Below are positions 13,688 to 63,999 of a stretch of 64,000 bases of DNA, in pieces. How positions within the stretch are numbered: position 1 is the stretch's first letter; each line of letters opens with the position of its first letter. The notes under the pieces are model-generated. The model was not told the DNA's origin. It worked only from the letters and a program-made list of their open reading frames with translations, and did not search any database. Source of the stretch: a virus; IMG/VR virus record IMGVR_UViG_3300005826_000037, positions 1 through 64,000 of that record. One strand, given 5' to 3'. The translations under genes and the position numbers were made by a program.

Positions 13688-16600
13688 TCATGTATAAATT
13701 AAAACTAATCTTGCCATTTTACATGTAGCTGTTCCACCAGATCCTGTCAATTCAATTTTATAAATATGACTTGTCGTTCCATCATCTAAATCAGTAGAAA
13801 TATCATCAGATTCTACATAAGTCTCAGATGTTGCAGTTGTTGAAAGTTCTTGATTTACACCATCAAGCAAAATATAACCTGGAGTACCAGTCAAATTATA
13901 CAATCTAATTTCAGCAGTACCAGCAGTAGTTTCTATAATAGCTTCAAACTTAACACTTGATAATCCAGTCTGAACAAAATCATCAAAAGTAAACTCAAAA
14001 GCACCAATATCTGTAGCTGTTGTTGCTGTAAATACGCCGGCAACACCATATACATACACTGGGTTCATGTAGATAAATGAAGGATCTAATTTTCCAGCAC
14101 TATCTGTTTTGACCATTTTACCAGCATCAAAAACTCCAGTGGATGAAGAAATAACTCCAGGAAGATCGTAAATAAACTGATAACTCAAAGCACTTCCGCT
14201 GCTCATCAAAACTGTTCCATAAGTTCCAGCAGCATTCAATCCAGTGCCTCCATTTACTATTGGAAGAATACCAGTTGTTTCTGCCTCTAAATCAACAAGA
14301 GCAGATGGTCCACCAGAAACTGGTCCGTTAAAGATTGAAATAAGACTTAACATATTTCTTACTTGCTCAGATTGAACAAACAAAGGAGTGTTGTTAAATC
14401 CACCCTTCTTAAGATATACACTCACCTGTACCTTAGTACTTAAGGTTTGCATTACTGCATCTTCATAAAGATTGGTAAAATTAAGTGTCAAAAATCCGGT
14501 GGAATAATCCATAGATACGCCCATTTTACCATCAACTATTGCTCCAGTATATCCATCAGGATCTTCTCCATTAGTGTTAGGAGAGAATGATTGAACAGCA
14601 ACAGAGAACCTAATTTTGTCATTAGTCAAATCACTTGATCCAACGAATGAACAATCTGCATATCTCATAGCTGGATAACCAAGTCTTGTTAAACCTGTTG
14701 GTAATCCTGTTGTTCCATCCAATTCAGAAACGATGAAATCCTGCATAAGGTTTAATGTTTTTTCATTTCCATAAAGACCATTTGGAATTTCAAGAACGAT
14801 TGTGCCCATTTCAAAGTCTACTTTGTAGAAATCTCCTGTAGGTCTTTTAATATCTCCAGTTCCAATTATAATATTATCTGGAGCATAAAAATCTATTGTT
14901 CCAGAGTCAAAATCAATAGGTAATGGATATGTATTGCAGGTTACACCATCAAGAGTACATTGGTTTACGCTATACCCAGTTAATGATGTAAATACGGAAG
15001 GAACTGTTTTAGTTCTAGTGCCTGTTATAACCCTAAAATCCTCCCAAGTTAATTTCTTTTCAAAATTCAACAATGCTGGATAGCTATAGAAATTATGACT
15101 ATGGAAATATCCATCAGCTAAGAAAATATCTTGTTCTGGATGAATAGATGTAGCTCTACCAGTAATAACTGAAGAGTAATCATCTGCTCTATCAATATAT
15201 TTTTGAACCTTAAATCTTACTACATTAAATGTAGTTCCAATTTTTGTGTAAGGATCTGTAGTTGGTGCAGGATAAGTTGGAGAAGGTGCACCTATATAAG
15301 GATATCTGTTTACATAACTCTCAAGTAAATATCCATCAGCTTCTGTTACTGCAAAGTCACCATTAATATCAGCTCTTAACATCTGAGCATAAACATCACC
15401 AGTAAGATAAATCTTCCTCAAAGTGATAACATCAGATAATGAATCAATACCAATAATACTAAAACCACCATAATTAGCATCAACAGACGGAGTATTTATA
15501 ACTAAAGTAAAATCTGTTAGACCTATAATTGTACTAAAAGAAACTGTAGAACTAGTGAATTGAGCAAGCCTATTATCATTAGGATTAGCCACAATAATTC
15601 CATCACTACCAGATGCAACAACATATCCATCAGATCTAACCAATTGGAAACTTATACTAAATCCATTTGAAAACGGAGCGGTAAGAGTTCTATAACCATT
15701 TACATATGTTGTGTATCCATATCCATCTGTGGTAACGCTTGATGTTTCTGGTAAACCAGTATTCATATTAAAACCATAATATGATTGTAGTAAATCCAAA
15801 TCATCAGAAGTAATCACTCCATCACCATCAACATCCCCAACCATCATTTTACATAATTTTGCTTCAGAAACTCTGTAATATGTACTTGTGTCAATAGCGT
15901 TTGGATAGATTTTTGCATCATTAAAATTCCCCAAAAGAAGATTTGTTTCTAATGCAGTAACAGCCGTACTATACCTACCAGTATCAGTTGTATCGGTTAT
16001 AATTTTAACTAAGATTTCGTCATCTACAATTGTTGCGCTGTATAACAATGATGAAATTGATGCTTGAGATGCATCATATGATTTGTTGTTTTTATCAGAA
16101 ATAGAACCAATTATTAAAGGTTCTGATGCTGCCGTTAAATTAGCAATATCGATTGAATTCAATAAACTAACAGATGGAACAAATTCTTTTCTAGAGTATA
16201 CTGGTTGACCAGTTCTTTGATCTGTTACTTGATCAGTTTTCTCAACGGTGGCTGAAACTACCGCTCTATATACATCATTACCAGTAAACTCAATATCCTT
16301 TAAACAATAATCTTCTGTTGCTTGTGTTATTGTATTAAGTTTTGTTTTTGGTAAAATAATACCATTACCAGCATCATATCCTTGTCCATCAGATACTTTT
16401 GCAGCATCATGCCAAATTCTAAACCATAAATCTTGCTCAGGAATATCAACCCATACAGAACCAGAAAAAGAAGTTATTCTTGAATCATCAATAAGATCAC
16501 TTCCTGCCTCTAAGATAATATCACATTTATTCGCAGTACCTGCTCTTTTAATAGCAAAAGCGTAATAATCTCCCACTGTTATGTTATTTCCATTTCCTGC

Positions 16601-17602
16601 AGCAGTATTACTAAAAACAAATTCAACAGGTTGTGGAACGCTATTAAGTTGCACACCATCTGCTAGAAGACTATTATAATCTAAACTAACTTGGGCAATT
16701 GGAATATTTATAGGAGAATAATCTATAGCTAGATTAGGTACTATATCTGTTGAGCATTCAATAGTTGATTGAAGTGGATAAATGCTTAAAATAAGTTCAC
16801 CAGTCCATGATAAATCTGCTGGGGTCACCAAATTTCTTACAGACATCAAAAGTGTTAACTTTTGAATGTTATTAGTTGCGGCAACAAATTTTTGACCAAC
16901 TTGAGTTGTAATATCATCGGCAAGCAAATAATATTGGTCTACACTTCCAGTATAAATACCAAGAGTATCTATATTATAATATGGCAAGGCTGCTGTGAGT
17001 AAAGTATATAAAGAGGTTGACCCATCTACAAAGAAATCTCTAAAGAAAAGATTTGGTTGCAAATCTTGCGCTATCATTTTAGGGCTTCTTGATAGAGTAA
17101 ATGGGTTTGTTTCTTTGATAACAATTTTGCCACCAAGATTAAGAGAGTATGACGGGTTACCAATGAAATCATTAAATAAAAGTAATTCTATTGTGGTAAA
17201 ATGTTTTGAGCTAATTTGCGTTTCATTTGCTTTAAATTCAAATGTTTCAAATTGAAGATCAGAATTAAAATCTAATCCAATAATACATACCTTAACCTTT
17301 TTCTTTCCATTTGCCAAGGAATTGGTTAGAGTTATTTCTAATTGATTTCCATAGTTTGAATCTGCTGGTTGGTTTTGAGCAGCTACGGCAACGCCATCTA
17401 GAAAATTTGTTTCCAGTGAAGAGTCAAACAAAATGTTTTGTTCAAGAACTTCAGGTATTGCTCCCGTTCCAAAATGGTTATTTATTATTCCTGTTTGCAC
17501 AGTAGCATTATGAGTTTGCTCTAAAGTAAGATCAGTATCATCAACTTGTTCAGCATCAAACCATATATTTTGTTCAGAAGTAACTGGTATTCTTTTTGTC
17601 AT
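13688..17602 (-). CDS. Large virion (baseplate/fibre) protein with dockerin-like Ca-binding loops
   Basis: Last gene of the baseplate run; beta-rich; GDVDGDGVITSDDLDLL and ADINGDFAVTEAD motifs; fibre-type GILPIVNGGTG motif. Confidence 0.65.
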   Translation of the reverse strand: MTKRIPVTSEQNIWFDAEQVDDTDLTLEQTHNATVQTGIINNHFGTGAIPEVLEQNILFDSSLETNFLDGVAVAAQNQPADSNYGNQLEITLTNSLANGKKKVKVCIIGLDFNSDLQFETFEFKANETQISSKHFTTIELLLFNDFIGNPSYSLNLGGKIVIKETNPFTLSRSPKMIAQDLQPNLFFRDFFVDGSTSLYTLLTAALPYYNIDTLGIYTGSVDQYYLLADDITTQVGQKFVAATNNIQKLTLLMSVRNLVTPADLSWTGELILSIYPLQSTIECSTDIVPNLAIDYSPINIPIAQVSLDYNSLLADGVQLNSVPQPVEFVFSNTAAGNGNNITVGDYYAFAIKRAGTANKCDIILEAGSDLIDDSRITSFSGSVWVDIPEQDLWFRIWHDAAKVSDGQGYDAGNGIILPKTKLNTITQATEDYCLKDIEFTGNDVYRAVVSATVEKTDQVTDQRTGQPVYSRKEFVPSVSLLNSIDIANLTAASEPLIIGSISDKNNKSYDASQASISSLLYSATIVDDEILVKIITDTTDTGRYSTAVTALETNLLLGNFNDAKIYPNAIDTSTYYRVSEAKLCKMMVGDVDGDGVITSDDLDLLQSYYGFNMNTGLPETSSVTTDGYGYTTYVNGYRTLTAPFSNGFSISFQLVRSDGYVVASGSDGIIVANPNDNRLAQFTSSTVSFSTIIGLTDFTLVINTPSVDANYGGFSIIGIDSLSDVITLRKIYLTGDVYAQMLRADINGDFAVTEADGYLLESYVNRYPYIGAPSPTYPAPTTDPYTKIGTTFNVVRFKVQKYIDRADDYSSVITGRATSIHPEQDIFLADGYFHSHNFYSYPALLNFEKKLTWEDFRVITGTRTKTVPSVFTSLTGYSVNQCTLDGVTCNTYPLPIDFDSGTIDFYAPDNIIIGTGDIKRPTGDFYKVDFEMGTIVLEIPNGLYGNEKTLNLMQDFIVSELDGTTGLPTGLTRLGYPAMRYADCSFVGSSDLTNDKIRFSVAVQSFSPNTNGEDPDGYTGAIVDGKMGVSMDYSTGFLTLNFTNLYEDAVMQTLSTKVQVSVYLKKGGFNNTPLFVQSEQVRNMLSLISIFNGPVSGGPSALVDLEAETTGILPIVNGGTGLNAAGTYGTVLMSSGSALSYQFIYDLPGVISSSTGVFDAGKMVKTDSAGKLDPSFIYMNPVYVYGVAGVFTATTATDIGAFEFTFDDFVQTGLSSVKFEAIIETTAGTAEIRLYNLTGTPGYILLDGVNQELSTTATSETYVESDDISTDLDDGTTSHIYKIELTGSGGTATCKMARLVLIYT

Positions 17603-17609
17603 ATTTTTC

Positions 17610-20600
17610 TCAACTTGTATACGTTATATATACCTTTGAATTAGCTGGTTTTAAAACCTTGATTAATTTCTCTAAAGCGTTTTTTACCTTTATATTATCG
17701 CTAATAATATCTAAAGAGTCAAAAATATTAATTAAAAAGCTAAATATACCAGTCTCTCTATTCACTATAGTAGCGAAATCTTCATTCTTAACAACCGTAA
17801 CATCACTGTCCTGTAAATAGGTTGTGTAGAGATCTTTCGTAACAGGGTATACAACATTTGAATTGCTATTATAAGCAACATCAAGTGGCTCGTTGTATGG
17901 AGAATATACCGGTCTAGAAATATTGCTTATACGCATATTATTTATCAAACCAAATAGAGGCTTTTCCCTAGTATATTCTGATCCAATATACACCGTATTA
18001 ATTGGATCCTTAAAAACAACATCCCCTATTATTCCATATCCATCGCCAACTTTCAACCCGCCCATAACTCCAGGGTATTCTCCATAAATAAGACCTGACC
18101 CAAACAACACACTACTATCAAGATTATATTGGTAGCCATCAAGATAAAGTCTCATCTCATCAAGACCTAAACCTCCATTAATCTTATATGTTGCCTTTAT
18201 ACGATGCCAAGTACTACCAATCCATTTTGTAGGAGCCCTAACAATATAATCAGTGCCAGATGCAGTTATTCTAAAATTAACATAACCAAAAACATCATTA
18301 AATAAAGATATTCTATCACCCTGAATACCAGAAGGAAGATATCTAACAACAACATTAGAGTTTTGTGAAGGCAACGCCATATTAAGTCTTATTACCTGTG
18401 TATTTAATGTTGAATTATTATTTGATGTTGATTGATATGTAACAACCAAATTTAAGCCACTAGCAGGTAAAGTTTTACCTAAATATATTGTCTTCTTATC
18501 TGTTCCAATTTTACCTGTTGTAAAATAATCTGTTCCAGTAGAATCTCCAACAATTTTCACAGTAATAACCTGTAAAACAGGATAATCAACCATAACTGCG
18601 CTATTTGAAATACTAGTTTGGGTTTCTCTTATTGCTCTTTGAGTATCTAATTCTAATTTTCCTCCTGCAAAGTAATCAATTTTCTGAGAACTATCTTTCA
18701 AAGTAACACTAATAACAGAGCTGGCTAATGAAGAAATTTTTACTGAAGTACTTGTCTCACTGATAACAGTTTCTTCAACTGCACTGTAAGCATCAAAATA
18801 ATATCTATCATTAGGATCATTTCCAGTGTCATATAATGGCGAAGTCCAAAATTCAATACTTCCTTCCTTAGTTCCATCAATAATTCCATCATTTGATAAA
18901 ACCATTGGATCTTTAAATATAGCCAAACTATCAGTAAAGTTATCATTAACTTTGTTTGATGAATGGAATTGTTGCTGATCAGAATAAGAATTTATGTAAA
19001 AATCCGCAGCATTTGTAAATGGGAAATCATCAAATGATAGCAAAACTAAAGTATTACTATCCTTTTCAAGAGCCTTTAATGAGTTATAATCTCTTGTTAT
19101 TGTCCTTTCAGTTCCACTAACAGTTTCCCCAATTCTTGTGTCAGTTAACATTTTTGAGTAGACCTTAATTTGATCTAATACACAATTAGCCTGATTAGAC
19201 TTATTGAAATCTGAGCCAAAATAAACATGACTATATGGCACATCCATCTTAACACTTAGATATGTATAATAATCAAGCTCATAGAAACCATATGGTAATA
19301 CATATCCTACAGTTGGCATATTAATTGCTTCAAGTGTAAAGTATCCATTTTGCAAACCACTCCTATAATCACTGGTTTGTAAAATTTGATATACACCATT
19401 AGTGAATGTTGGTAATACTGGAGGATAAGGTCCTACACTTGTATTTTGTATATACAACTTTGTCTTATCAGTTGAAACTTTTGTGATCAAATAAAATCCA
19501 GCAGCCTCAATTGGTGAGTGTATCAATAGATAATTACCAACATCTAAATCACTAAATAGTGAGTATCCATCAGTAACACTATATCCATCAGCAACTGTGT
19601 ATCCATCACTATAAAGATTATAGCCTACACCTATTTGATAACTATACCTAATCACAGGAACTAAACCACTATTCTCACTGTGAGTCATAGGGTACTTTTC
19701 TTTTAAAGATATGGCTAAAGCATTTTTGGCTATATTAGTTGGTTTAACAATAACATTTACATAATTTACACCTATATATAAATCTGTAAAATATTGAGTT
19801 CCATAATCTGTAAAATACAATGTCTCACTTACTGTATAAGCACCAACTTGTCCATTTATAGTTACTTCTACTGGAGTTGTGAAATCAGTATTTGTACCAG
19901 ATAATGTAACACCAACTGTCCTTCCCTCTTGAGAATTAGAAGGTTGATATCCAGTGATGTTATTAGATACAAATTTTCCGCTAACAATTGTTGAATTATT
20001 TGGACCAATAACTGTTGATGGTAAAATAATTCTGTAAATATTAGCTTCATCTAATGAAACTGGAGGAGGCATTCTTGTTTTGATAATATACTCAGTATTA
20101 TCACTCCACATATAATATTGTCTTGAAACTCTTCTGCTAGATAACCCTAATGTTTTAATAAGAATTAAATCATCCGCAAAAACATCATTAGATATAGTTA
20201 ATACATCATTATAATATCCGTCTGTAGATTTTGAAATAGAATATGTTGGTCTTAATGCTCTTACTCCAGGAATTTCGTTTTCTGTGGTTGAGTATATAAA
20301 GAAACTTTCATTAGAGACTTCTACTGGAAGATAACCATCAATAACTAAAGAGTTAGTAGATACCTGTAAAATACTATAAACAGTTGGTAAATATCCATCC
20401 ACAATTCTGATTAAATATCCAGAAGATACATCTTGAGTTGAAAAATCAATAGATGCCGAGGTAACAACATTAGTATTTATTGTTCCAGAAATATCTGTTC
20501 CTTCAACAACTGAGTGTATTGTAGATACAGCAATATTTGGTGAAACATTTATTTCTGAATCAACAGTAAATTCTGTTCTATTGACAGAGAAACTAACTCC

Positions 20601-23600
20601 TGTTAAAGTTGAGGGCATAACAGAGTCAAGAAGTAATGATTGACCAAGAACAGTATTTATTGTATAACCATTTGTATCAAAGCCGTTCTCATCTATAAAA
20701 ATAGTATCACCAGCAAAAATATTATAAGAGCTGAAGTTCGTAGCAGATATTACAAGATTTGAGTTTAAAGTTGTTTGAAGATCTGTACCAGAAAGTATAT
20801 CCCTATCTGCAAGCCCAACTATTCTCTCTGGGTCTATCGTTCTAAATTTTTCATTAAGATAAGGAGCAAGTTTTTGACCATAATGAAGTATATTTGGGAC
20901 CTCAAAACCATCAATAAATAAATGCATCTCATCTCTTGCATTAATGGTGTTTAATTTCCAAGATATTGCAACATGATGTTTCTCGTGAGCTTTCCATTCT
21001 GAAACATTAGAGCTTACAGTATAGATTTCTCCATTCTTATCAACTGTTCTAAAATTTAAATATCCAGAAACATCTTTAAACAAAGATAATCTATTCTTAG
21101 CTTCGCTCTCACCAAGATCCAATATATAATGCTTTATGTCTGAAACAAATGAAACACCATCATCAATTCCATAAGAGCCGCCAGTAATATTTAATCTAAG
21201 CTTCTTAACACCACTAAAGATTGTTACATAAGATGGTTTAGGATAAACCATACTAACTGCATTATAAAAACTTCCATTTGACTCTATTGAAATTCTATAC
21301 GTAGCGCTTGTAGGTGATGCTACATATCCATCTCTTACTTCAACATACCATTTGTAATAACTTCCTGTAGAGTCCAAATCATTATAAATAAAAATTCCAT
21401 CCTTATTTTTATTTGGAGTTCCTAATACTTGGGTTGCTTTTGTTACGGTAAATGTATTATTTGTTTCAATATCTGGATGAATTTCTCCAGCACCAATAAA
21501 CACTTTGTCTTTTGTTATAGCTGAACCATTTCTTGTAATTGTAAAAGTTAGCTCGGCTTCATTATCTAAACCATTCCACTGTGGCTCAATCCATGTTTCA
21601 AATGTTCCCTCTGATAGTTTTATATTAGATGTAACTGGCAAAGATATACTTTGCCCGTCTGTATCCATAAGAACACCATCGCCAAACTTACAAGGAATTT
21701 GTTGAAAAGATCCTGTTGTACTAACTTCTTGTGGATTCAATAAACTATTACCAAGAGACCATCCTTGAAAAACTGATTCCTGAAGATCCGGTGTAATGTG
21801 CGATATCGTTTTTCCAATATTTTTTATCGCATTTACTGTAGGTCCTTGAATGAAAGAAGCTAATGCTGCGCTTAATGCATCACGATATCTCTCTCTATCA
21901 AAATCGATATCAAAATTTGTAAGTTCAGGAACATCAACAAGATTTCCAAAATTCCTATAAAGTGCATCTCTTAAAGCACCAGCTTTATATGTAACATAAT
22001 ATTCTGTCCCAGAAGCTAAATTACCTTCTCTAAAATCAATCGAGTTATCTCCATATTCATAACTTAAAATGATTTCATCTGCAAGATAAGTATAGTCTAT
22101 GTAATAACCTCCCTTATCATAATCTACTGCTACTGTTACTAAATTGTTTATTTCAAAAGAATATATAATCTCCACTGGCTCTCCTTCAACAGGAGAATTA
22201 ATGCCAGGTAGAATAAGTTTTATAGTTTCTCCAGGTATTATTGTTCCAGAAGAATTCCACAACTCTTTTGAGTCAGTTGTTCTAATAACACTAAAAGTAT
22301 AAGTTATGTAAGGTGAAATGTATGGTACATTCTCCTCAACATTTACATATAGATTAGATCCGTCGCTCAAAATTGATTCGTATGATTGACCGGTTATAGC
22401 AGATACTGTGATATTTTTACCAGAACTTGTACTGCTTCTAGCAAAATTCAAAGGGTTTGTACTATTTTTTAAATCTGTTCTCTCATAAATACCTCTTATA
22501 GATTTTACAGTATGAGATACTCCAGAAACAAATGAACCACTTACGTAGGCTCCAATTCTGCTATTAAAAACTTGATAAGGAGAGGATGAAGTATCATTCA
22601 ACAATAACTCATCAGAGTAATCAAATGTTGATGGTATTATCTCTCCATCATCAAATGATAAATATGTAAATGTTGTGCTTTTATTATTTAAATTTCCAAT
22701 CCTATAATAAATATCTTCGACACTTATAATATGTGGATTTTCTGGGGAAATGTTATTATTCTTGTAAGTTACATATCCAATTAAGTTATTTTGAGTTGAA
22801 GATACTGCACAATATATAATGCCATTAACATAGTCAACCATATATTGACCAATTTCTGATAATAGATCGATATTTGTTGCTGCGGTTTGAGTTCTATCAT
22901 ACCATTTTTCATTCACAAAAATATCTGTTTTACTAAATGAAACAGAAGAATTTACAGATGAACCAATTCCGTCTTCAGATGCTCCAATGATTGTGTTGTT
23001 ATCTAATAATATTTTGAATATTCTGTATCCATCTGTATTTGATAGGTACGCATTAACAAACATCATTTCATTAACAACATCTTTAAATGACGCTCTTTCT
23101 CTTGTTTTTTCTATTATTCTTGGCGCGTTTATATATCTAAAATAGATCTTGTTATCATTCCACCTTATAACAGGATATATTTCTCCAGAAGTTTCATTAT
23201 ACACTCTGAATACATTTGTTATTGGGGTATTTTCTGTTTTTGCAACATTTAGTGCAACTAATCTATTATCAACTCTTTCTGTAAGTTCTTCAAAATGCAA
23301 ATAGGCTTTATAATCAACATCTGGTACTAAAACTTTTTCATAAGAGAATGAAACTGTCCCATCATAATCAACTAAACTACCTTCTGGTAATGCAACAATA
23401 TCTAAAAGGTCTGCATCATAAGTATAATCTATTTCTGATTGATATGTATGCCTATATAAATAAGTAGCCAATGGAGGGTATGGACCTGTCCCATCTTTAT
23501 CAGAGTCTTCACCATATACATAAACAGTTCCTGTTTCATAATCAACAGAATATTGTCCAGAAGATGATGGTAATGCACTTAACCTAAATGGAAGTTCTGT

Positions 23601-29598: not shown

Positions 29599-29640
29599 AT
29601 TTTTTCCAAGCGCTCAAGACATATCTAATATGTATATATC

Positions 29641-30072
29641 TTATATTGTAGATACTCTGAAAACTGTTGTAATTGGTTTTAGTCCTTTTGTTATTGCACC
29701 AATTCTAACATCAAATAATCTAGGATCTATTCGATTTCTGACTATAGATATTTCTGATATTGCACTTATCTGTTCATCGGCTGATACGCGTTGGAATGAT
29801 CGTACTTGTAATTCTTGTAATGAGATAAGCATATTCAATGCAGTACTTAGTTGAGATTTTCCCATTTGCACCAAAACTGATGTATGGGATGGATTGCCAA
29901 CAATAGTTCTTGACAAATAAGACCCATACCAAGGCTGCATTGGATTTGCCCCATTTGTTGTGAGACAAATTTTTAGAATATCTTGGATTAATTTTTCTGA
30001 ATCAACAACTGTTTGCAATTCTGAGTTATTGATTACTAAATCACCATTTTTAAGCTTTAAGTCAAATGACAT
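29641..30072 (-). CDS. gp25/GpW-like baseplate wedge (sheath initiator)
   Basis: DLKLKNGDL, KLIQDILKICLT-x-x-G-x-NP-x-x-PWYGS; position before J; AGGAG RBS. Confidence 0.8.
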   Translation of the reverse strand: MSFDLKLKNGDLVINNSELQTVVDSEKLIQDILKICLTTNGANPMQPWYGSYLSRTIVGNPSHTSVLVQMGKSQLSTALNMLISLQELQVRSFQRVSADEQISAISEISIVRNRIDPRLFDVRIGAITKGLKPITTVFRVSTI

Positions 30073-30134
30073 GGTGCGCTCCTACTCCTTCATATGCAGA
30101 AATATTAGATAAACCTGCATGTGTGTTAAAATAC

Positions 30135-44628: not shown

Positions 44629-44631
44629 CTA

Positions 44632-51458: not shown

Positions 51459-51461
51459 TTA

Positions 51462-52458: not shown

Positions 52459-55400
52459 TTATGTAGTGAACGTATAATCATCATATACCAATCCATCAAC
52501 ATGAACCGCATAGTAAGTTTTTTCATCAAAACTAGTACCAGTACTATATGGGCTAATATATGCCAAAGATGTTGCAGATAATGTGTTGTTAATAATATGT
52601 ATTGTTCCCTTTTTAGGCTCTTTTCTAACAAACTTAGACCCTATATAATCTGCAACTGATACTATTATCCAGGACGCTCTATTACCATCAATTACTACAT
52701 ATGAAGAAGTATATGCACAAGTATTAATTTGTTTAGCCTGAACAGATGAATACTCAGCAATTGAATATGCTAAACCTTTATAGTCAAGATTTGTAATTAC
52801 ATTACATGTGTTTCTAGAAATTGTTAACCCAAATTCTTTGTTGTTATCTCTTGTAATATTTGGAGATTCATTAATTATTCTTCTTCCTTCACCAATCCAA
52901 TAACCAATTGCACCACAAATATTATCTTTGATTACACAATTTTGTGCAGCAAGATATGTCGGATACATAGCTTTTACATTGTTAGCAGTAGTATATGTTG
53001 TTGATGTCAAAACTATCATCTGATTTCTATCACATACATTTCTTGAAATCTCAAAATTTCTAATAGTAGGTGGTGTTTGCTCAGATATAGATGTGCTATT
53101 ATTTATAACAGCTATTGCTGCTCTAAAATCATCAACAGTTCCTGAAGACTCTATATTATTAAACTTACAATTTGTTATTTTAACATTCTCTACTAAATCA
53201 CCATTATCTAAATTAAAGTTTATAAATGTCAATCTGTTATCTGTACTAATAAATGCATTTCCAAACTTAAACTCAGTATTATTTATTTCTATATTATACG
53301 CCTCTGTATTTGTAAAATACATAAATCCATTACCATTATTTATCAAATCATCAACATCATAGCTTATCTCTAAACCAGGAACATAAGTATTTTCAATATA
53401 ACAATTTTTAACTAACATATCGTGAAAATAACTATTTTCTACTGAAATTGCTCTTCTAAAATTGCCACTAATTGAGCTTTCACTAAATACAAGATAGCTA
53501 CTATTACCATAAAACTCATTAGTTATATAGAAAACATCACCAGGTCTATATGAACCATTATTAAAATTAACAGTAACATCACTGTTAATAAAACTGAAAT
53601 TACTAATATCATCAAGATTAAATACTCTGCCACCTTCACTCGTTGGGCTTCCATAGGTTGCAGTTATACTACAGTTTTTAAAAGTTATATTGTTAGAAGA
53701 TAATAACTGAGCCAATATATTATCAGTTGGCGTTGTTGATGGATAAAAATAAATTGTACAATTTTCAAAAACTACATTGTTACTTAAAAATATTCCAAGT
53801 AGCTTCTCAAATGTAATTGTCATATTTCTTATCACAATATCATTGCCTGAGATAACTAAATTTTCACTAAAAGTTAATGATGATGTATTTCGACCATCAA
53901 TATTTGCGCTATCTAATGTAATTGGTTTAGTTATTGTTTCTGCAACTTCATTTATGATAATATTGTTATTGTGAGAACCACCATACTTTAACCAATTGAA
54001 AATTGATTCCACACTGTAAAAATTACCTTGTTTTGAATTATTGTTCAAAATAATTGTATCATTAGATTCATTATCATTTACAAATTTTCTAACATCATTC
54101 AATACAAGAGAAATACTAGAGCCGCTAACAGTAGATGAAACTATATAAAGAGGCGTCAAATCTTTTCTATTATTAACAAGATCAGAAAAAGTTATTGCTT
54201 CAATATAATATGAGGAAGTCGTTGCTGGATTATAAGCATTGAAGTTTCTATTTCCACTTGGAGTACTCAATATCGAATCATAATCAAGTGATGGAATTGC
54301 TTGAAAATCTCCCGAATTGCTTACACAAAGAATCCAATTTATATTGTATAGTGTTGAGAAATAAATCTCTTTAATGATCGGTATAGATACCGTCTCATTA
54401 TTCATATAGATTATTTTTCCGCCAACTAATGCAGAACCTCCAGAAAGATAGATCTGACCACTATTTGGATTAGATATAGGAGTCACATCTTGTGCATCAA
54501 ATCCTTTAAAAACACCATTCTGATGAAGTAGCTTATCCGGAAGAGAAATATAATCTAAAGCTGATGTACTAAGTTCATCTTCACTAACATTTCCAAATTG
54601 TCTCTTATCAGTTACATAATTAATATAATTAGTTTCAGTATTATACTGACAACTAGCCACCATCATAATTTCTTTATCAGCACTAAGACTTGGAAATAAT
54701 TGTATATCTACAACTTCTTCTGTTATGTTTGAAAAAGAACCATCCACAGGGAATAATACATCTATATAATCTACATTCGTCTCATCATAAAACCTTAGAA
54801 CTTGACCAAGTCTTCCAGTTGTTGTAGGACCAATATGTGTTAAATTAGTCCCATCATAAGACGCAAGATAACCATCAATCAAACCACTAGAAGAAACCAA
54901 ACTATCTATATATAAAGATATCTTTGTTATCGAACTAAATTGATACCCTCTTAATTTGGGAGATATACCAATTAATTCCATTTTGCTTAATTCAACTGTC
55001 GTTAATCTTAATGGTATAGAATTTACTGTAATGTCACCAGTTCCATTTGTAAATCTTCCACGTTCATGAGCAAATGTCTTTGCTTCCTCATCAACGTAAA
55101 TTTCCAGATATCTCTTGAATGGGGATGCAGTAGTATAATCAGACATATTTTCAGAATTTACAGGCACTGAACCTGAATTGAAATAAATCCTAAAATGACC
55201 GCTACTTGCGCTTGTGTATGGTGAGGAACCTGTTCCATGTACAGCATCATATACAGTAACATCTGTGTAACAATCAACTCCACATTCTGTAAATACAACA
55301 CTAGATACTACAAAACGTCCATAGTCTATATAATTAATAGTAGGAGACATCGGTTGAACCACAACAGTTGAACCTGGTCTAATATTAACTGATGATAATA

Positions 55401-57342
55401 TATTATCTAAAATACGATATGTTGTACTTACTTTACCATTTGGTGCGGGAGTTTCAGATCTTGCAACGATATAACCATCCCAATAACCAAATCCATATCC
55501 ATCTTGTGTCTGTCCTGACTCAAGAGTTAATTTATCTCTTTCAGTTCCATTAACATAGAAATTATTTCTATCAAGAGGAACATAGAGTTTTGTTGGATAT
55601 AGTGCTTGAGCTGAAGAAGAATAACTTACAGAGTATGCAGGGCTAGATATTCCACCATTTAATGGTCCAAGACCAAGAGGATCTACTGGCTCTAATGTTC
55701 CACTTCCAAACAAACCAATTACATTATTAGGGTATGCATAATTAGTTTCTGACTCATCATAATCTCCAGCTGCATCAACTGCACCATCAAGCACTGAAAA
55801 TGCAGCATTACTATATGGATCAGCAAGGGCGATACCAAATTCACCTTGATATGAGAATGCTATAAATCTGTAGTTATATCCTGCTTTTCTAAAAGTATCA
55901 TTAATTGTCTGCACAACAGTATCTAATGTATACTTTCCGGGAGTAACACCAAGGTTTCCTGTAACGTCTATTTCAGGCAAAACTACATATCCATCATCAG
56001 CATTTCCAGTAGGATATAATGCTAAATACAAAAGATAATGTGAAGAATCAATTAAATCTGCATTAAATCCGACACCAAGAGCCATTGCACCTGTTGGATT
56101 TGTAACTATTAAGCTTGCAGGTAATGATATCTCATCATTGTTTGCTGATGCTACAGCCAAAACCCCATATTTATTGTTATTATACAATGGTCTTTCAACC
56201 TTAGCATATCCATCAGTTGTGTAATATAGATTATTACTACTAATTCTTACAAAAAATCTACTAGGAGTTCCTGGAATATACTTCTTCTCTTTGATAAGGA
56301 AAGGAATCTCAACTGTACCATAATTGATCCTTATTATATCTCCAACCTTTGCTAAAGCAAATTGTGAGTCAAATAAGAAGCTTGATGTAGCAGATGAATT
56401 TGGAGTGAATTCTATAATGTCATCACCATATTCGATATTATCAACAGGAGAGCTACTAGAACCATTATTTCTAAGATGTGTAGTAACTTGAGTTGATGGA
56501 ACAATAGTTTGCCCACGTGCATCTGCAGTAAGAACTGCGGATCTAGAAGCTCTAGAAACACCATTAGAATACAGATTCTGAATTCTTGTTCCGTATAAAA
56601 AGATGCTAGCATCATCAAGGTGTTGGGCAAATAATTGCAAATCATTTACTGTTTGTGGTATTACAGAAAATCTAGTTGTATCAAGGTAAATACCAGAAGA
56701 TGTGTGAGCATAATCAGCAGGGTAAGTACCGCCATTATTTGTAGTTATTGAGATTGAAGACGTACCAGACCCATCAGACCATTGGTGATTGAGAACTTCA
56801 GAGTTCAATTCATTCAATGCTGTGTATGAGTCTGTATTATCTCTGTATGTTCTGTATCTACTAAGGAAATAATCTGTTGCACTTTCACTGACACTAATTC
56901 CACTAAGTGGATGCTTATAAGTTATACCAAGAATATGTGGTTCTAACTTTATTCCTGTTAAAGATATCCATGAAATAGAAGTATTTATATCACCAGCAAG
57001 ATCTCTAGTATAATTAAATAAATCAGCAGTTTTATAATCAAGAGATAATTTAGATTCAGGAATTCCTGCATTGTTCGCTATTTGTGGGTTTGTAATTGGT
57101 AGAGTAACTAAACCTAAACTTGTTAATGCAGATGGTTTTATATATCCATCTGCTCCAATAGAAATCCCAAGCCTATTGGCAAGAGTACCTGCGCTTCCAG
57201 ATAAACCCAATCCAAACTCAGCTTGCATATTAAATATGGCTTCGCGACATCCATTTATAGCTTCATCACCAATTTCAGTTATATTATTGTTAACTGGAGG
57301 AAGTGTTGTGTCATCATCATAATCGTTAGGGTAGTTACTCAT
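52459..57342 (-). CDS. Large fibre/tailspike protein with C-terminal right-handed beta-helix (pectin-lyase-like)
   Basis: NVVFENCTI, NITFKNCSI, NVKITNCKF, EISRN, VIKDN, IINN repeats; beta-rich N-terminal structural domains. Confidence 0.7.
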   Translation of the reverse strand: MSNYPNDYDDDTTLPPVNNNITEIGDEAINGCREAIFNMQAEFGLGLSGSAGTLANRLGISIGADGYIKPSALTSLGLVTLPITNPQIANNAGIPESKLSLDYKTADLFNYTRDLAGDINTSISWISLTGIKLEPHILGITYKHPLSGISVSESATDYFLSRYRTYRDNTDSYTALNELNSEVLNHQWSDGSGTSSISITTNNGGTYPADYAHTSSGIYLDTTRFSVIPQTVNDLQLFAQHLDDASIFLYGTRIQNLYSNGVSRASRSAVLTADARGQTIVPSTQVTTHLRNNGSSSSPVDNIEYGDDIIEFTPNSSATSSFLFDSQFALAKVGDIIRINYGTVEIPFLIKEKKYIPGTPSRFFVRISSNNLYYTTDGYAKVERPLYNNNKYGVLAVASANNDEISLPASLIVTNPTGAMALGVGFNADLIDSSHYLLYLALYPTGNADDGYVVLPEIDVTGNLGVTPGKYTLDTVVQTINDTFRKAGYNYRFIAFSYQGEFGIALADPYSNAAFSVLDGAVDAAGDYDESETNYAYPNNVIGLFGSGTLEPVDPLGLGPLNGGISSPAYSVSYSSSAQALYPTKLYVPLDRNNFYVNGTERDKLTLESGQTQDGYGFGYWDGYIVARSETPAPNGKVSTTYRILDNILSSVNIRPGSTVVVQPMSPTINYIDYGRFVVSSVVFTECGVDCYTDVTVYDAVHGTGSSPYTSASSGHFRIYFNSGSVPVNSENMSDYTTASPFKRYLEIYVDEEAKTFAHERGRFTNGTGDITVNSIPLRLTTVELSKMELIGISPKLRGYQFSSITKISLYIDSLVSSSGLIDGYLASYDGTNLTHIGPTTTGRLGQVLRFYDETNVDYIDVLFPVDGSFSNITEEVVDIQLFPSLSADKEIMMVASCQYNTETNYINYVTDKRQFGNVSEDELSTSALDYISLPDKLLHQNGVFKGFDAQDVTPISNPNSGQIYLSGGSALVGGKIIYMNNETVSIPIIKEIYFSTLYNINWILCVSNSGDFQAIPSLDYDSILSTPSGNRNFNAYNPATTSSYYIEAITFSDLVNNRKDLTPLYIVSSTVSGSSISLVLNDVRKFVNDNESNDTIILNNNSKQGNFYSVESIFNWLKYGGSHNNNIIINEVAETITKPITLDSANIDGRNTSSLTFSENLVISGNDIVIRNMTITFEKLLGIFLSNNVVFENCTIYFYPSTTPTDNILAQLLSSNNITFKNCSITATYGSPTSEGGRVFNLDDISNFSFINSDVTVNFNNGSYRPGDVFYITNEFYGNSSYLVFSESSISGNFRRAISVENSYFHDMLVKNCYIENTYVPGLEISYDVDDLINNGNGFMYFTNTEAYNIEINNTEFKFGNAFISTDNRLTFINFNLDNGDLVENVKITNCKFNNIESSGTVDDFRAAIAVINNSTSISEQTPPTIRNFEISRNVCDRNQMIVLTSTTYTTANNVKAMYPTYLAAQNCVIKDNICGAIGYWIGEGRRIINESPNITRDNNKEFGLTISRNTCNVITNLDYKGLAYSIAEYSSVQAKQINTCAYTSSYVVIDGNRASWIIVSVADYIGSKFVRKEPKKGTIHIINNTLSATSLAYISPYSTGTSFDEKTYYAVHVDGLVYDDYTFTT

Positions 57343-57778: not shown

Positions 57779-59221
57779 TTAAGCTACTTTAACTAAATCC
57801 ATTTTAACATGAATGTTCCAGTATGAGGTAATACCACCAGTGGTATTATATGAGGTCCTAATAACAATATCATTACCTGTAAGATTATATATAGGAGCGG
57901 CACTCCAAGTACCACCAGTAGATGAATGAACTGTAGTTATACCAGTTTGAGTTACAGAGCCTGTTATCCTATTTGTAGCAAGAATTTGTTTTTTCTGATA
58001 ACAATTTCCATTACTACCAACACCAACTGCAGTAATTTCAATCAATGCAGCAGAATATTGAGGCATTGTTATTGTCAAAACATCTACCGTCGCCGTAGTT
58101 GCTGTAGCATTTACCTGATATCCATCTCCAGGATTATCAAGATTGTCTCCTACTTTATAAGAATCGGCAAGTGCCTCTGATACTCCTAATGAATAATCAT
58201 TATTATCAGTTTGTACTACACGAAGTTTTCCAGCAGTTGAATATAATATAGAACCTGTATAATTTGGACCCCTTGTAGGTGTTGGTGATGAATTGCCAAT
58301 ATAAATAATTTTACTACCAGTATTTTCAGGTAATCTACTAGTAAGTGTCGTTGTGTCTGAACAAAATGCAACTACTTTTCTACTACCAATTTCTCCAATT
58401 GACTGAATTTCTTCTACAAATAATAAAATATCACTACTATTATTTGCCTGTGTACCAATCCAAACTCCTCCATGCAATTCAGAAGAAGAATACCCTCCTC
58501 CCAAATATAACCTTCCTCCTTTATCAACCGTAGAACCTTGAGCCCTAAGTTTTAAACCATTTCCAACTCCTGTTGTTCTAGAACTATAAAATCCAATATT
58601 ATAACTATCTAAAATACTACCTTCAAATAATATATTTGAACAATTTACAGTCAACACTGAATCTCCATCACCAGTTACACTGACAATTTCTATATTATTT
58701 GATGTTCCGCTTACATCTCCACCAACTACTAAATTTCCAGGAACCCATTGACTTCCACTCCAATATAAAACATTATTTGTCGATGGAGAAGAACTACTAA
58801 TAGCATTTCCTCTAAGTTTAATTACAGATACAGAATTATAAGATCCACTAATATCACCCCCCAAAGAAACAGGTCCCCAACCAGAACCGTTATATCCTAA
58901 TATCTGACCAGATGTAGGAGATGAAGATAATACCGGTGTTGCCTGTAATCTTGAGACTAATGGAGAAGAATAAGTTCCTCCCAAATCTCCTGTCAATTTT
59001 ATTCCACCAGTTACTGATGCTGTTGCATTAGGGAATACTCCAGGAATATAACCAGAAATAGCTGTAAGTGCCGATTGTATATCTGTATATGGAGTTCCAT
59101 CAATTGTTACAGAACAAGCAATTGCTCCGCCCAAATGTTGATATGCGTATCCATCAACATGATTTTGAAAATCATATCGACTAGTTGCTAATTGCCCAAT
59201 TCCCGGTCTATAATTTCCCAT
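57779..59221 (-). CDS. Fibre/whisker-like virion protein
   Basis: Repeats LTGDLGG / LGGDISG / VGGDVSG and GQILGYNGSGWGP / NNVLYWSGSQWVP typical of fibre shafts. Confidence 0.6.
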   Translation of the reverse strand: MGNYRPGIGQLATSRYDFQNHVDGYAYQHLGGAIACSVTIDGTPYTDIQSALTAISGYIPGVFPNATASVTGGIKLTGDLGGTYSSPLVSRLQATPVLSSSPTSGQILGYNGSGWGPVSLGGDISGSYNSVSVIKLRGNAISSSSPSTNNVLYWSGSQWVPGNLVVGGDVSGTSNNIEIVSVTGDGDSVLTVNCSNILFEGSILDSYNIGFYSSRTTGVGNGLKLRAQGSTVDKGGRLYLGGGYSSSELHGGVWIGTQANNSSDILLFVEEIQSIGEIGSRKVVAFCSDTTTLTSRLPENTGSKIIYIGNSSPTPTRGPNYTGSILYSTAGKLRVVQTDNNDYSLGVSEALADSYKVGDNLDNPGDGYQVNATATTATVDVLTITMPQYSAALIEITAVGVGSNGNCYQKKQILATNRITGSVTQTGITTVHSSTGGTWSAAPIYNLTGNDIVIRTSYNTTGGITSYWNIHVKMDLVKVA

Positions 59222-59232: not shown

Positions 59233-61242
59233 TTAAGGTAACACAATAGTGTGCGTATGACCCAATACAATCGATACAACACCTGCAATAATTTGATGAT
59301 TATGTCCTTGTGAAACATTTGTAGTTTGATTTATTTGAGAAATTGATGTAATACCTTCGTTTACAACAATCTCATGAGTATGTGGCAGGATATTTGAAGC
59401 AACACCAATACTTGTATTCAACTTTGAAGGAAACATACTAGTATCGCTAAATATTCTTATTTGATAAGCTGGATCAAACTTTCTAATTCTTTGCGCCCTA
59501 AATTTTTGACCGCCTTGCTGCCCAATCATAGTATTATTTCTAGTTACAGATAATACTTCATACCTATACTCTTCATTTCCATTAAGGTCATATAATACTA
59601 TAATATCCCTATCTTTTATAGTAGGAACTGTAAGTGTCCAAAATTCTGTCTGAAACTCAGACTCCAAACCAGCTTCTGTCATTTTTACATCTTCTTCGGT
59701 TGGTCCAGGTCTTACCAAAATTCTACCATCAGATCTTCTTGGATTAAAATATTGTTCATATCCAATGACAAATTTAGTACCATGACATAATGGGCATCTA
59801 TCATCTGGATACTCACTAGACTCAAGATAACAAGAGCAAGTTATTCCTGTTCTAGTTCTCTTAATAAGAACTGCTTGTTTACCAGTATTATCTAAAAGAA
59901 CCTCTTGACGTTGATTATTATGATCTTGAACAGAGAATCCTCTAAGTACATTATAATTTCCATACTTATCAATACATCCCATTTCTCCACCAATATAACT
60001 TCCAACACATGTTCCATTTAATAATTGAACTGGATCTGTTCTATGATATCCGGCATAATCATACCTTGGAAAATCTATATTTTCTTCATCACTCACACTT
60101 AAATCAGATGTTAATAAATCTTTTGTTACTTGATGATATCCGTCCGTCGCTGTGTATGGATAATTGGGATATTCAAATCTTGACTCACACAAAAATATAT
60201 TGTCATATTTTGTATCCTCTCCCGATACAAAATAAATAACAGCAGGATTCCAATATAAATCACCATCATAGCCATCTGTATTATGTAATGTAGCAGTAGT
60301 TCCGCTATACCCTCTACCTCCAGCAATTGTTTCAGATCCATCAACACCAATGATAAATGAATCCCCTTCAACAAATGGATATCCATCATATTCAACTATT
60401 GAAAAACTAAATATTCCATTGGATATGTTATAACCATCAGCTGTCCAAATATATGGGTCTGAATATCCATCCCTTACAGCGCCAACATAAGGGTTTGTAT
60501 AACCATCTTTAACATATCCATCAGTAGGATAAACAACTCCAGAATATGACCCAACAGATATAAACTTTGCAGTTGATTCTATTGGATTTCCATATCCATC
60601 TTTTTGAACAGAAATACATTGTATTTTCCATGTTTCTGTTATTGCGCTAAGATCTTCCAGAGTTAAATTAGCTAGATATCCATCACCAACATTTCCATAT
60701 GAAGGAAGATAATTAGATCCTCCTTGATCTATAAAATGAGCGCTGATAAACGTATCACCAGGAACACCTAATGTATTAGCTATAGAATTTGTAGTTGTAT
60801 AATGAATTAATTCTGCACCAATTCTTACAACTCCTTCATCAGGAAAATCAGTAACATCCATTAGTGGGATTATTAAATCAGTACTTGTTATATTGTTCGC
60901 TAATAAACTACTAGGAACAATTCTTAAATTATCGTAAGCAACCAATAAATTTGTTAAATCGGTCACTGACTCATCATATTCCACAGCTCTAACGGAAAAG
61001 AAATACAATTGTCCTGGAGTTAAATCAATGATGTTTGCTTCTGTAGCACCATCAATAGATACATACTTAACACCCTCAGAAAATACATCTTCCTTAATTG
61101 TAGAATAATAAATATAATAGGCGATACTATTTGTAGATATTGTTGGGTACGCTTGGTGCCACTTCAAATTAATGGTATAGCCATCGCCCAAGCTGGTTAA
61201 AGCATCTAAACCGCCAATTATAGGTGATGGATAAAAAACCAT
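59233..61242 (-). CDS. Neck / head-closure-like protein with FN3-like N-terminus, CxC...CxxC motif and His-rich tail
   Basis: INLKW...YYIYY...LTPGQLYFFSVRA (FN3); CSC...CPLCHGT; PTIKDRDIIV...RYEV; PHTHEI/GHNHQI/GHTHTI. Confidence 0.6.
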   Translation of the reverse strand: MVFYPSPIIGGLDALTSLGDGYTINLKWHQAYPTISTNSIAYYIYYSTIKEDVFSEGVKYVSIDGATEANIIDLTPGQLYFFSVRAVEYDESVTDLTNLLVAYDNLRIVPSSLLANNITSTDLIIPLMDVTDFPDEGVVRIGAELIHYTTTNSIANTLGVPGDTFISAHFIDQGGSNYLPSYGNVGDGYLANLTLEDLSAITETWKIQCISVQKDGYGNPIESTAKFISVGSYSGVVYPTDGYVKDGYTNPYVGAVRDGYSDPYIWTADGYNISNGIFSFSIVEYDGYPFVEGDSFIIGVDGSETIAGGRGYSGTTATLHNTDGYDGDLYWNPAVIYFVSGEDTKYDNIFLCESRFEYPNYPYTATDGYHQVTKDLLTSDLSVSDEENIDFPRYDYAGYHRTDPVQLLNGTCVGSYIGGEMGCIDKYGNYNVLRGFSVQDHNNQRQEVLLDNTGKQAVLIKRTRTGITCSCYLESSEYPDDRCPLCHGTKFVIGYEQYFNPRRSDGRILVRPGPTEEDVKMTEAGLESEFQTEFWTLTVPTIKDRDIIVLYDLNGNEEYRYEVLSVTRNNTMIGQQGGQKFRAQRIRKFDPAYQIRIFSDTSMFPSKLNTSIGVASNILPHTHEIVVNEGITSISQINQTTNVSQGHNHQIIAGVVSIVLGHTHTIVLP

Positions 61243-63266: not shown

Positions 63267-63315
63267 AAGACCCAACTGCGTCAACTATTAAGAACACTCG
63301 TAAGTGCTTGTTTTC

Positions 63316-63999
63316 TCATATCAAACGCCTAGCGCGAAGGTGGCGAAGGCGTTTGAAGGCTGGATTTATTGCTGAATTCATTGAGAAAACGCCTAGTCCT
63401 CTTGGAGTAGGTCTAAGAGAATTCTTGATATACTTTAATTTTTCCCAATAGTGTGTTAACAATGCAGAATATTGAGTCATCATTAACTCAGAAACAGTTG
63501 GAGGATTAAAATTCAATCCATTATCTGTGAACTGAAATTCACGACCACGTTCAATAAGTGCTTTTGATGCTAATGCATAAAGAGTTGCGCCTTCAACAAG
63601 AATTTCACCAAATTGTTCAACAAAGTTATTATCATCAAATTCAAAAAATGTGAAGTAAGGAACCTGATTAAAATCCCATAAAGCTGTTGCAATAAAAGTA
63701 ACAAGTATATCATAAGAGAAAATATCACAATCTACATATACAACATTTCCATAAGCATCTGCTGATTTGGCTTTACCAGAGCTATTAAGTCTCGCTCTCA
63801 ATGATTTTACAAGCTTATTTATATTAGTTGTTGCTTCTTGAGAGTATTGAAATCCTGGATCATCACCAAGAGCCGTATATCCGTCCGTATTGGGATGTGG
63901 GATTTGCGTATAATTTATAATAAATTCAAATTGTGTTTCAACACGGAACCCATTGATATACGCGATCCAAATATCATGCCAAACACCATATGAGGCATT
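63316..63999 (-). CDS. Head-tail adaptor/neck-like protein, 5' truncated by the window edge
   Basis: Frame is open from 63999 (NASYGVWHDIW...NTDGYTALG...) through the annotated TTG at 63801; ALWDFNQVP...TDNGLNF adaptor-like pattern. Confidence 0.6.
   Translation of the reverse strand, partial: NASYGVWHDIWIAYINGFRVETQFEFIINYTQIPHPNTDGYTALGDDPGFQYSQEATTNINKLVKSLRARLNSSGKAKSADAYGNVVYVDCDIFSYDILVTFIATALWDFNQVPYFTFFEFDDNNFVEQFGEILVEGATLYALASKALIERGREFQFTDNGLNFNPPTVSELMMTQYSALLTHYWEKLKYIKNSLRPTPRGLGVFSMNSAINPAFKRLRHLRARRLI

Follow-up and report, generated by a model that had tools for sequence, protein, structure and literature searches.

Asp-Gly-Tyr enrichment in the outer virion proteins of an uncultured huge phage, with a conserved GT4-type glycosyltransferase as candidate writer

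Short sequons direct several bacterial protein glycosylation systems, namely D-(S/T)-(A/I/L/V/M/T) in Bacteroidota, D/E-X-N-X-S/T for Campylobacter PglB and N-X-S/T for HMW1C. HMW1C and the GT4 enzyme GtfA/GtfB, which glycosylates serine-rich adhesins and of which GtfA belongs to family GT4, modify proteins as soluble enzymes of the cytoplasm; the Bacteroidota and PglB systems work in the periplasm. To our knowledge, none of these short bacterial sequon systems uses tyrosine and none is viral. For mycobacteriophages, Freeman and colleagues reportedly showed by experiment in 2023 that phage-encoded glycosyltransferases glycosylate the virion, the targets being Ser/Thr-rich C-terminal stretches of the capsid and tail-tube subunits. 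Phage-encoded virion glycosylation is also alluded to in PMC11256854, and the jumbo myophage XacN1 encodes two glycosyltransferases, with at least two glycoproteins detected in its virion (PMC5852040). According to work cited in a passage of the latter paper, chloroviruses glycosylate their own capsid with virus-encoded enzymes (PMC5852040). Tyr-linked glycans with rhamnose-containing cores occur on surface-layer (S-layer) proteins of Paenibacillus alvei (SpaA) and of Thermoanaerobacter species, where the glycan is assembled on a lipid carrier and an O-oligosaccharyltransferase then attaches it as a whole, outside the membrane, to 2-4 sites per protein, and for which the review states no sequon (PMC2943079). 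Here, we followed up a first-pass annotation of a 64,000-nucleotide stretch of DNA (the window), the first 64 kb of the 113,644-bp virus record IMGVR_UViG_3300005826_000037 (G000), in which the tripeptide Asp-Gly-Tyr (DGY) is strongly enriched in the outer virion proteins and a soluble glycosyltransferase of the GT4 type is encoded directly after the last tail gene. We conclude that DGY is very probably a selected surface tag read in trans. That it is an acceptor sequon for Tyr glycosylation is a tentative reading, to which we give somewhat less than an even chance.

The record is collinear with 165-265 kb of the complete 446,541-bp IMG/VR genome G001 (protein identity 35-93%). This collinearity marks it as a huge-phage fragment, evidently a piece of a ~450-kb phage genome from an uncultured clade, of which it covers ~114 kb, i.e. 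about a quarter. Among cultured phages in GenBank, none was found with a close relative of the neck protein or of GT4. Like the mycobacteriophages, the phage described here has soluble glycosyltransferases near its structural genes, cytoplasm-assembled virion proteins as proposed targets and a proposed sugar coat. In contrast to the experimentally demonstrated mycobacteriophage case, however, it is known from sequence alone, capsid and tube are without the motif, the candidate acceptor is the Tyr of a strict D-G-Y, and the candidate targets are sheath, neck, baseplate rim and fibres. Virus-encoded cytoplasmic machinery acting on an own structural protein at atypical sites, as proposed here, is a likeness to the chloroviruses PBCV-1 and NY2A; these are viruses of eukaryotes, though, whose glycans are N-linked to Asn at non-canonical capsid sequons, and the likeness of our GT4 to a chlorovirus enzyme is that of the GT-B fold in general. 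With the S-layer system the phage would share the Tyr hydroxyl as acceptor and an exposed lattice protein as substrate, and the rhamnose cores match the RmlB-type gene of the phage cassette, whereas here only soluble glycosyltransferases, up to 10 sites per protein and a strict tripeptide are found. DGY resembles the short bacterial sequons in that these span 3-5 residues and have an acidic residue at position -1 or -2 of the acceptor. XacN1 is likewise a large phage with glycosyltransferases of its own, but GT4 and the neck protein of the window have no homologue in it. A D-G-Y tripeptide, a sequon for Tyr, and sheath, neck and fibres as targets are absent from all of the compared systems. 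Full-text literature searches returned no paper on a "DGY motif", and the matches to "Asp-Gly-Tyr" were unrelated. The tag thus appears to be undescribed in the literature found, and both sequon and targets would be new if the modification is glycosylation.

Extent and specificity of the DGY enrichment

The enrichment of DGY is real and far beyond chance. Per-protein composition predicts 4.5 DGY for the window, which contains 46 (z = 19.6), and the next-ranked tripeptide reaches z = 6.7 with 2 occurrences. Across the whole record, 74 DGY were observed compared with 7.4 expected; when each protein was shuffled 2000 times, the mean was 7.5, the standard deviation 2.8 and the maximum 18, so that the enrichment stands, with DGY by far the most enriched tripeptide. 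Nearly all occurrences, 71 of the 74, fall within the structural module at 13.7-77.5 kb, which comprises tail, neck, fibre and decoration genes and carries the enrichment past the end of the window, while the other proteins of the record (15,800 amino acids, aa) have 3 DGY with 2.4 expected. Two of the 46 DGY in the window are non-structural, one of them inside the probable intein of RmlB described below.

Within the structural module, the over-representation is tied to the exact residues and their order. DGY occurs 71 times with 5.0 expected (~14-fold), whereas the near variants and most permutations stay at background, namely DGF (5 observed, 4.2 expected), NGY (8, 5.3), EGY (1, 3.4), YGD (3, 5.0), GDY (2, 5.0) and DYG (7, 5.0), and YDG is mildly raised (13, 5.0). 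DG and GY are the two most enriched dipeptides, and no extended consensus flanking DGY was found. At the DNA level, the coding strand has 47 matches to the pattern GAYGGNTAY, of which 46 are in frame 0, and the opposite strand has none; every synonymous codon combination for DGY is used. This frame restriction and free use of synonymous codons indicate selection at the peptide level, as the first-pass annotation had proposed from the varied codons. To an artefact of composition, repeats or a DNA-level signal we assign practically no probability. A few motifs do stand in short tandem arrays and GGA is mildly preferred (55% vs 41%), but most sites are isolated in unrelated contexts, the shuffle maximum of 18 is far from 74, the DNA pattern is frame-specific and uses all synonymous codons, and the enrichment holds in genomes with a guanine-cytosine (GC) content of 0.29-0.44. 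This explanation was therefore rejected on the shuffles, the frame specificity and the independence of GC content.

The outer tail proteins together have 44 DGY in 10,395 aa, and a mechanical count reproduced all per-protein counts that the first reading had made by eye. Directly upstream of GT4, the last tail or baseplate-periphery protein of 1304 aa (13688..17602, minus strand, as are all genes below unless stated otherwise) carries 5 DGY (0.41 expected), and its homologues in 18 relatives have 3-8. The neighbouring 2392-aa wedge-like giant protein (17610..24788) has 10 (0.75 expected) and contains the tandem array DGYTVADGYSVTDGY at 19563..19607. The 1365-aa baseplate J-like protein (24791..28888) has 2, at residues 574 and 889, and the 734-aa tail protein (31808..34012) has 3; between these two, proteins of 236 aa, 143 aa (gp25-like by position) and 557 aa (28888..31808) have 0. 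The 923-aa tail sheath (47713..50484) carries 3 DGY at residues 145, 417 and 504, proteins of 274 and 328 aa (50634..52448) carry 1 each, the 1627-aa fibre (52459..57342) carries 6 and a 480-aa fibre-like protein (57779..59221) carries 2. The 669-aa neck/collar fibre protein (59233..61242), with a fibronectin type III (FN3)-like N-terminus and C-terminal HxH repeats, has 10 (0.33 expected), and a 299-aa adaptor-like protein (63316..63999 in the window, running to 64215 of the record) has 1. PHROGs and Pfam searches with the tagged proteins matched almost nothing.

Between sheath and baseplate lies a DGY-free block (34030..47696), which includes the tube protein (216 aa), a tube-initiator-like protein (298 aa), a tape-measure-like protein (1665 aa), proteins of 670 and 779 aa and small proteins, and which contains an inserted TnpB gene at 45695-46879. 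Excluding TnpB, 0 DGY were found in its 4,982 aa, where 21 would be expected at the rate of the outer proteins (P ~7e-10). The earlier claim that inner-type proteins are without DGY was thereby borne out for this presumed inner block, whose label as inner is based on gene order, size and one weak Pfam match (Phage_tail_tube_init).

Some further features of the tagged proteins may be mentioned here. In the 1304-aa protein, residues 589-610 match a short Dockerin_1-type calcium-binding loop with 23.3 bits, just over the cut-off, shortly before the first DGY. The C-terminus of the 669-aa protein (59233-59400, minus strand) has three invariant HxH pairs (HTH, HNH, HTH) that presumably resemble the metal-binding HxH repeats in trimeric phage fibre tips; model confidence is low there, as would be expected of an obligate trimer. 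Beyond the window, a 150-aa protein (record 65065-65517, minus strand) has five DGY, four of them within 17 residues (DGY-YT-DGY-Y-DGY-PI-DGY), which makes it the densest array of the record and a natural minimal test substrate. At 67493-77466 of the record lies a block of ~10 kb with about ten genes, most of them without homologue in the close relative G001. Five of these genes are DGY-rich (3, 4, 3, 4 and 6 DGY in proteins of 248-495 aa), and the block resembles a fibre or decoration gene set specific to this lineage.

Position of the motif in folds and its distribution in relatives

All three sheath DGY lie in the insertion region, outside the conserved core 739-919, and two of the three are retained in relatives with 65% identity. 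The two sites of the baseplate J-like protein are outside the Baseplate_J core at residues 67-268. In an AlphaFold2 model of the 669-aa neck protein, calculated from 52 homologues with a mean predicted local distance difference test score (pLDDT) of 70, all ten DGY are in loops, turns or strand starts. Three of them belong to a low-confidence loop insertion (60430..60522; DGY at 241, 246 and 258, with 269 at its edge). Mapping onto structure thus favours loop or turn placement, in this one model, and positions outside conserved cores; exposure of the sites is deduced from secondary structure and domain position rather than from a measured solvent-accessible surface.

The neck protein also shows how the motif is gained and lost. 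Its sheath-like domain (residues 169-301, 60340..60738) is paralogous to residues 127-245 of the sheath (window 49750-50106), with 46% identity (E = 1e-29). One DGY is common to both domains and six additional ones are present in the neck copy, where they were gained by substitutions (RSAL to KDGY, ANGT to ADGY) and by a 19-residue insertion with three. The neck family comprises more than 600 homologues on contigs of up to 496 kb. The 52 aligned homologues have on average 5.2 DGY compared with 0.2 expected; five DGY columns are widely conserved, each in 24 to 51 of the 52 sequences, and about twenty are lineage-specific. Over polymorphic columns D and Y co-vary with an odds ratio of 27, a value not corrected for phylogeny. 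Where D-G is retained but the Y is lost, its place is taken by S, A, T or N and hardly ever by F, which suggests that the Tyr is not a structural aromatic. An exhaustive profile search revealed clades of the neck family with 0-1 DGY. One DGY-poor clade, which is nested within DGY-rich sequences, has DGT, DGT/DGF and NGY at the conserved sites, with intact flanks. Since such lineages break every conserved site and yet keep the fold, the fold is independent of the motif. About one tenth of the neck homologues (P0004, P0005, P0010 and others) are ~1,060 aa long and contain LAGLIDADG, Hint and Intein_splicing domains, which points to intein invasion of the neck gene in several lineages.

These observations bear on a cis-acting structural micro-motif, in which an Asp-Gly beta-turn with a strand-starting Tyr would stabilise exposed loops and no reader would be needed. 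Many DGY do precede hydrophobic, strand-like sequence, the model places them at turns and strand starts, DG and GY lead the dipeptide ranking, and virion proteins are beta-rich while replication proteins are not. However, NG, the best hairpin former, is not enriched with Y (8 NGY, 5.3 expected), nor is DGF, and the fold survives the breaking of each conserved site. The motif is also missing from the presumed inner proteins, from 1,200-2,900 aa of homologous beta-rich fibres in clades A and B described below, and from likewise sampled proteins of outgroup huge phages. Moreover, a cis effect does not predict that density changes jointly over unrelated folds within a lineage. We consider this explanation improbable.

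Among relatives, 18 IMG/VR loci anchored on GT4 (identity 47-72%, GC 0.29-0.44) were compared. In 16 of them the upstream tail proteins have 5-16 DGY, with 0.2-1.0 expected per locus, and the remaining two hold too little upstream protein to judge; GT4 and the downstream genes have 0-2. Pooled large proteins have 190 DGY, with 11.6 expected. Genome G001 has 23 DGY where 3.9 are expected in its structural region at 160-240 kb and background counts elsewhere. Clade B is a more distant group with genomes of 200-335 kb; one of them (G003) was taken whole, and from six others the 20 kb next to GT4 were taken. Neck proteins of clade B carry 0-2 DGY, and its fibres usually carry none in ~2,800 aa. 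The two GT4-adjacent proteins of clade B (~1,520 and ~3,300 aa) have 6-12, with ~1.2-1.7 expected per whole 20-kb GT4-proximal stretch, and the presumed inner proteins of G003 have 0. The tag is thus present in all GT4-bearing genomes examined that hold enough protein to judge. The two baseplate-rim proteins beside GT4 are, as far as these genomes indicate, the universal tag carriers and probably the ancestral targets; in the lineage of the window, the tag appears to have spread to sheath, neck, fibres and the private 10-kb fibre/decoration block.

The density of the tag also seems to shift in concert in different proteins. In five genomes with at least 4 neck DGY, the large proteins whose genes follow downstream of the neck gene have 1.85-3.8 DGY per 1000 aa, and in thirty genomes with at most 2 neck DGY they have 0-1.15. 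Over these 35 loci, neck count and downstream density correlate weakly (Spearman 0.23) because 30 of the 35 are near zero, and only the two-class split is clean. Such joint change in different proteins suggests that they have a reader in common. A weakly similar C-terminal domain led to ten outgroup huge phages (179-536 kb, six of them at least 98% complete); a GT4 orthologue is missing from all ten, and the loci sampled in them have DGY at background. Three candidate interpretations were discarded in the course of this comparison. A decoupling of GT4 from the tag, with clade B taken as DGY-poor, was dropped when the tag was found in the GT4-adjacent proteins there. The search for an alternative sequon in clade B yielded as top tripeptides conserved family positions and no tag. 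For clade A, DGT (17 observed, 5.4 expected) was not convincing as a sequon, about half of the occurrences being the same homologous neck positions. Clade A is represented by contigs of at most 40 kb in IMG/VR and JGI metagenomes and by none in GTDB genomes, and it is not callable as a total loss of the tag, since clade B tags its rim proteins with neck and fibres untagged.

The strict identity and order of the residues, the loop placement with fold-sparing gain and loss, and the joint change of density in unrelated folds together argue for a reader or writer acting in trans rather than for an effect in cis. One such reader could be a binding partner. DGY would then be a non-covalent docking or adhesion motif that binds a phage decoration or fibre protein, or that makes weak multivalent contacts with a host or environmental polymer and so aids adsorption. 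Capsule, S-layer and mucus-like matrix are examples of such polymers. The restriction to peripheral proteins, the loops and the multivalent tandem arrays fit equally well with docking, and a change of host or partner would also shift density jointly across proteins. The Tyr hydroxyl matters, DGF not being enriched, as for a hydrogen-bonding or stacking contact, and the private DGY-rich block with no G001 homologue turns over like host-range genes. On the other hand, three residues in unrelated contexts offer a slender basis for the specific binding of a protein, no protein emerged as a candidate reader, and the strongest tagging of the two proteins beside a conserved glycosyltransferase in all lineages would be left unexplained. 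We regard a docking or adhesion motif as rather unlikely.

GT4, its cassette and the candidate modification

The GT4 gene (12522..13661) encodes a soluble protein of 379 aa. It is present as a full-length orthologue directly after the last tail gene in G000, in the 18 IMG/VR relatives and in genome G007, and full-length orthologues were found in eight of the eight clade-B genomes tested (36-39% identity, E = 1e-60 to 1e-70). G003, which alone of the clade-B genomes was read through, again has it directly after the last tail gene. The AlphaFold2 model (pLDDT 81.5, predicted template modelling score 0.79) has alternating beta and alpha elements in two Rossmann-like domains. Compared with PDB structures, the model gave 453 matches at E<=0.001; the ~40 listed are all GT-B, mostly GT4 or near relatives. 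Its best match among solved structures is the chlorovirus NY2A glycosyltransferase B736L (PDB 3oy2), with a template modelling (TM) score of 0.64 and 15% identity. An EX7E motif (as defined in PMC2943079) is present at residues 270-278 as ECFWMPGLE, with E270 invariant and E278 kept in at least 90% of 17 orthologues. Sequence profiles match less clearly, with 29.4 bits for Pfam Glyco_transf_4 (cut-off 28.5) over a short stretch only and 17.3 bits for Glycos_transf_1 (cut-off 26.4). On the model, the protein is best described as a divergent member of the GT4 family with a GT-B fold, and it looks like a working enzyme.

The cluster of GT2, GT4 and RmlB genes adjacent to the tail genes, which the first-pass annotation had put forward as one possible modifier of the tag, is real and the position of its GT4 is conserved, but its GT2 genes have no counterparts in G001. 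GT4, two GT2 enzymes and RmlB follow the last tail gene and are thereby linked to the structural genes. The GT2 glycosyltransferases of 235 aa (10165..10872, no homologue in G001) and 276 aa (8269..9099) are lineage-variable. Between them, a 326-aa protein (9116..10096), for which neither Pfam nor a PDB sequence search nor the Atlas gave a known family, is kept in G001 (54% identity) but not in clade B. The dTDP-glucose 4,6-dehydratase RmlB (662 aa, 6277..8265) matches its family in two pieces around an insert of ~300 aa with a below-threshold Intein_splicing match, the insert being a probable intein. Between GT4 and the GT2 genes, a 384-aa protein with a DUF4379 treble-clef zinc-finger domain (window 11355-12509, minus strand) is essentially absent from G001 (15% coverage elsewhere) and is probably a mobile endonuclease-like insertion. 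The sugar cluster of clade B, read in G003, is far larger, with six or more GT1/GT4 enzymes in addition to the GT4 orthologue, a fusion of glycosyltransferase and methyltransferase, a sulfatase, a sulfotransferase, a nucleotidyltransferase and a DUF711 protein, which suggests a variable glycan on a conserved initiation step. Of the cassette, only GT4 and an SDR dehydratase-like gene are common to all tagged lineages, and this comparison narrows the candidates for the writer. GT4 is most plausibly the best candidate, given its presence in all tagged lineages, its synteny, the universal tag carriers as its neighbours, and the GT-B model with EX7E. No O-oligosaccharyltransferase or initiating phosphoglycosyl transferase was detected among the cluster genes scanned with Pfam and NCBIfam, nor was one seen in the 114 kb; a lipid-linked oligosaccharyltransferase route is unlikely because virions assemble in the cytoplasm.

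In the glycosylation reading, DGY would be the acceptor sequon of a cytoplasmic protein O-glycosylation. The soluble GT4 would put the first sugar onto the Tyr hydroxyl, recognising the Asp at -2 and the flexible Gly at -1 within a beta-turn. The RmlB-type dehydratase would provide the 6-deoxy-sugar precursor and the lineage-variable transferases would lengthen the glycan, and the exposed tail, neck and fibres would become sugar-coated. We advance with more reserve the broader proposal that the conserved huge-phage GT4 represents a cytoplasmic Tyr O-glycosylation system unknown till now, which would give a whole clade of ~200-480-kb phages a deoxyhexose-containing coat on sheath, neck, baseplate rim and fibres, with the density of the tag tuned by lineage. 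Thus, of the earlier suggestion that DGY is a recognition tag for the adjacent glycosyltransferases, the tag itself holds as real, peptide-selected, peripheral, loop-placed and fold-independent, while any modification, Tyr as its acceptor and GT4 as its writer are what we infer from the sequences.

Several points weigh against glycosylation by GT4. All judgeable genomes with GT4 are tagged and the ten outgroups have neither, but this co-distribution contrasts one clade with outgroups; it counts as a single phylogenetic event and gives no independent support, and no loss of GT4 within the clade was found among the genomes examined. GT4 is equally present in clade-B genomes with untagged neck and fibres, so that its presence does not set tag density. 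Both GT2 enzymes of the window lack a homologue in the close relative G001 of 446 kb, which is still tagged, and GT4 and the SDR dehydratase-like gene are all that the cassette has in common with clade B. The similarity of GT4 is generic, to enzymes acting on sugars, lipids and small molecules, and nothing marks it as a protein glycosyltransferase; the cluster could instead modify DNA or host surface polymers. Although exposed, the probable major capsid protein (336 aa, 80933-81943 of the record) is free of DGY, which does not fit a rule that everything exposed is tagged. Finally, exposure of the DGY sites itself is read from secondary structure and domain position.

The evidence for a tag read in trans is silent on which chemistry is involved, and the record is a quarter of the genome. 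DGY might accordingly be the sequon of another covalent chemistry of Tyr or Asp, such as phosphorylation, nucleotidylation, sulfation, dihydroxyphenylalanine (DOPA) oxidation, dityrosine cross-linking or succinimide/isoaspartate formation at Asp-Gly, with the enzyme encoded elsewhere in the ~450-kb genome or by the host. With an acidic residue and a turn-former preceding the Tyr, DGY is reminiscent of the loose rules of Tyr sulfation, and the clade-B cluster holds a sulfotransferase and a sulfatase; since this sulfotransferase has no homologue in G000 or G001, sulfation was rejected. No kinase, Fic-type enzyme, tyrosinase or peroxidase was found in the scanned parts of the record. No sequence forms aspartimide as readily as Asp-Gly (PMC12447389), but spontaneous formation of isoaspartate needs no Tyr. 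Taken as a group, these other chemistries have, in our estimate, a small probability.

If a writer does read DGY as a glycosylation sequon, this tripeptide would be the first sequon for tyrosine glycosylation to be defined, GT4 would be the first viral enzyme to glycosylate Tyr under the direction of a sequon, and the tag would be the first evidence of huge phages systematically decorating the tail exterior. This would bear on adsorption, stability, escape from recognition by host or grazer and engineering of phage surfaces, for which a portable tag of three residues would be easy to add. Irrespective of its reader, DGY may serve as a sequence-only marker of outward-facing proteins and loops in uncultured, unimaged virions. 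New in this work are the DGY maps of the whole record and of whole genomes, the lineages that break the motif, the retention of the tag in clade B only in GT4-adjacent proteins, and the finding that the conserved cassette comes down to GT4 and a dehydratase-like gene.

Other genes of the record

Recognisable genes in the record encode the sheath, the baseplate J-like protein, a UvsW-like helicase, a GH25 lysin and a TubZ-type tubulin; the tube initiator is recognised by its single weak match to Phage_tail_tube_init. The gene for the TubZ/PhuZ-type tubulin lies at 4842-6218 of the window (minus strand). An enzyme of the CCA-adding/poly(A) polymerase family is encoded at 78993-80252 of the record on the plus strand, i.e. 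opposite to the structural region in which it lies. The TnpB-type gene (45695-46879, minus strand) sits in the tail operon, where the tube gene and the tail gene next to it form its two neighbours, has no homologue at the same place in G001 and encodes a 394-aa IS605 OrfB/TnpB-type protein with HTH_OrfB_IS605, OrfB_IS605 and Cas12f1-like TNB domains.

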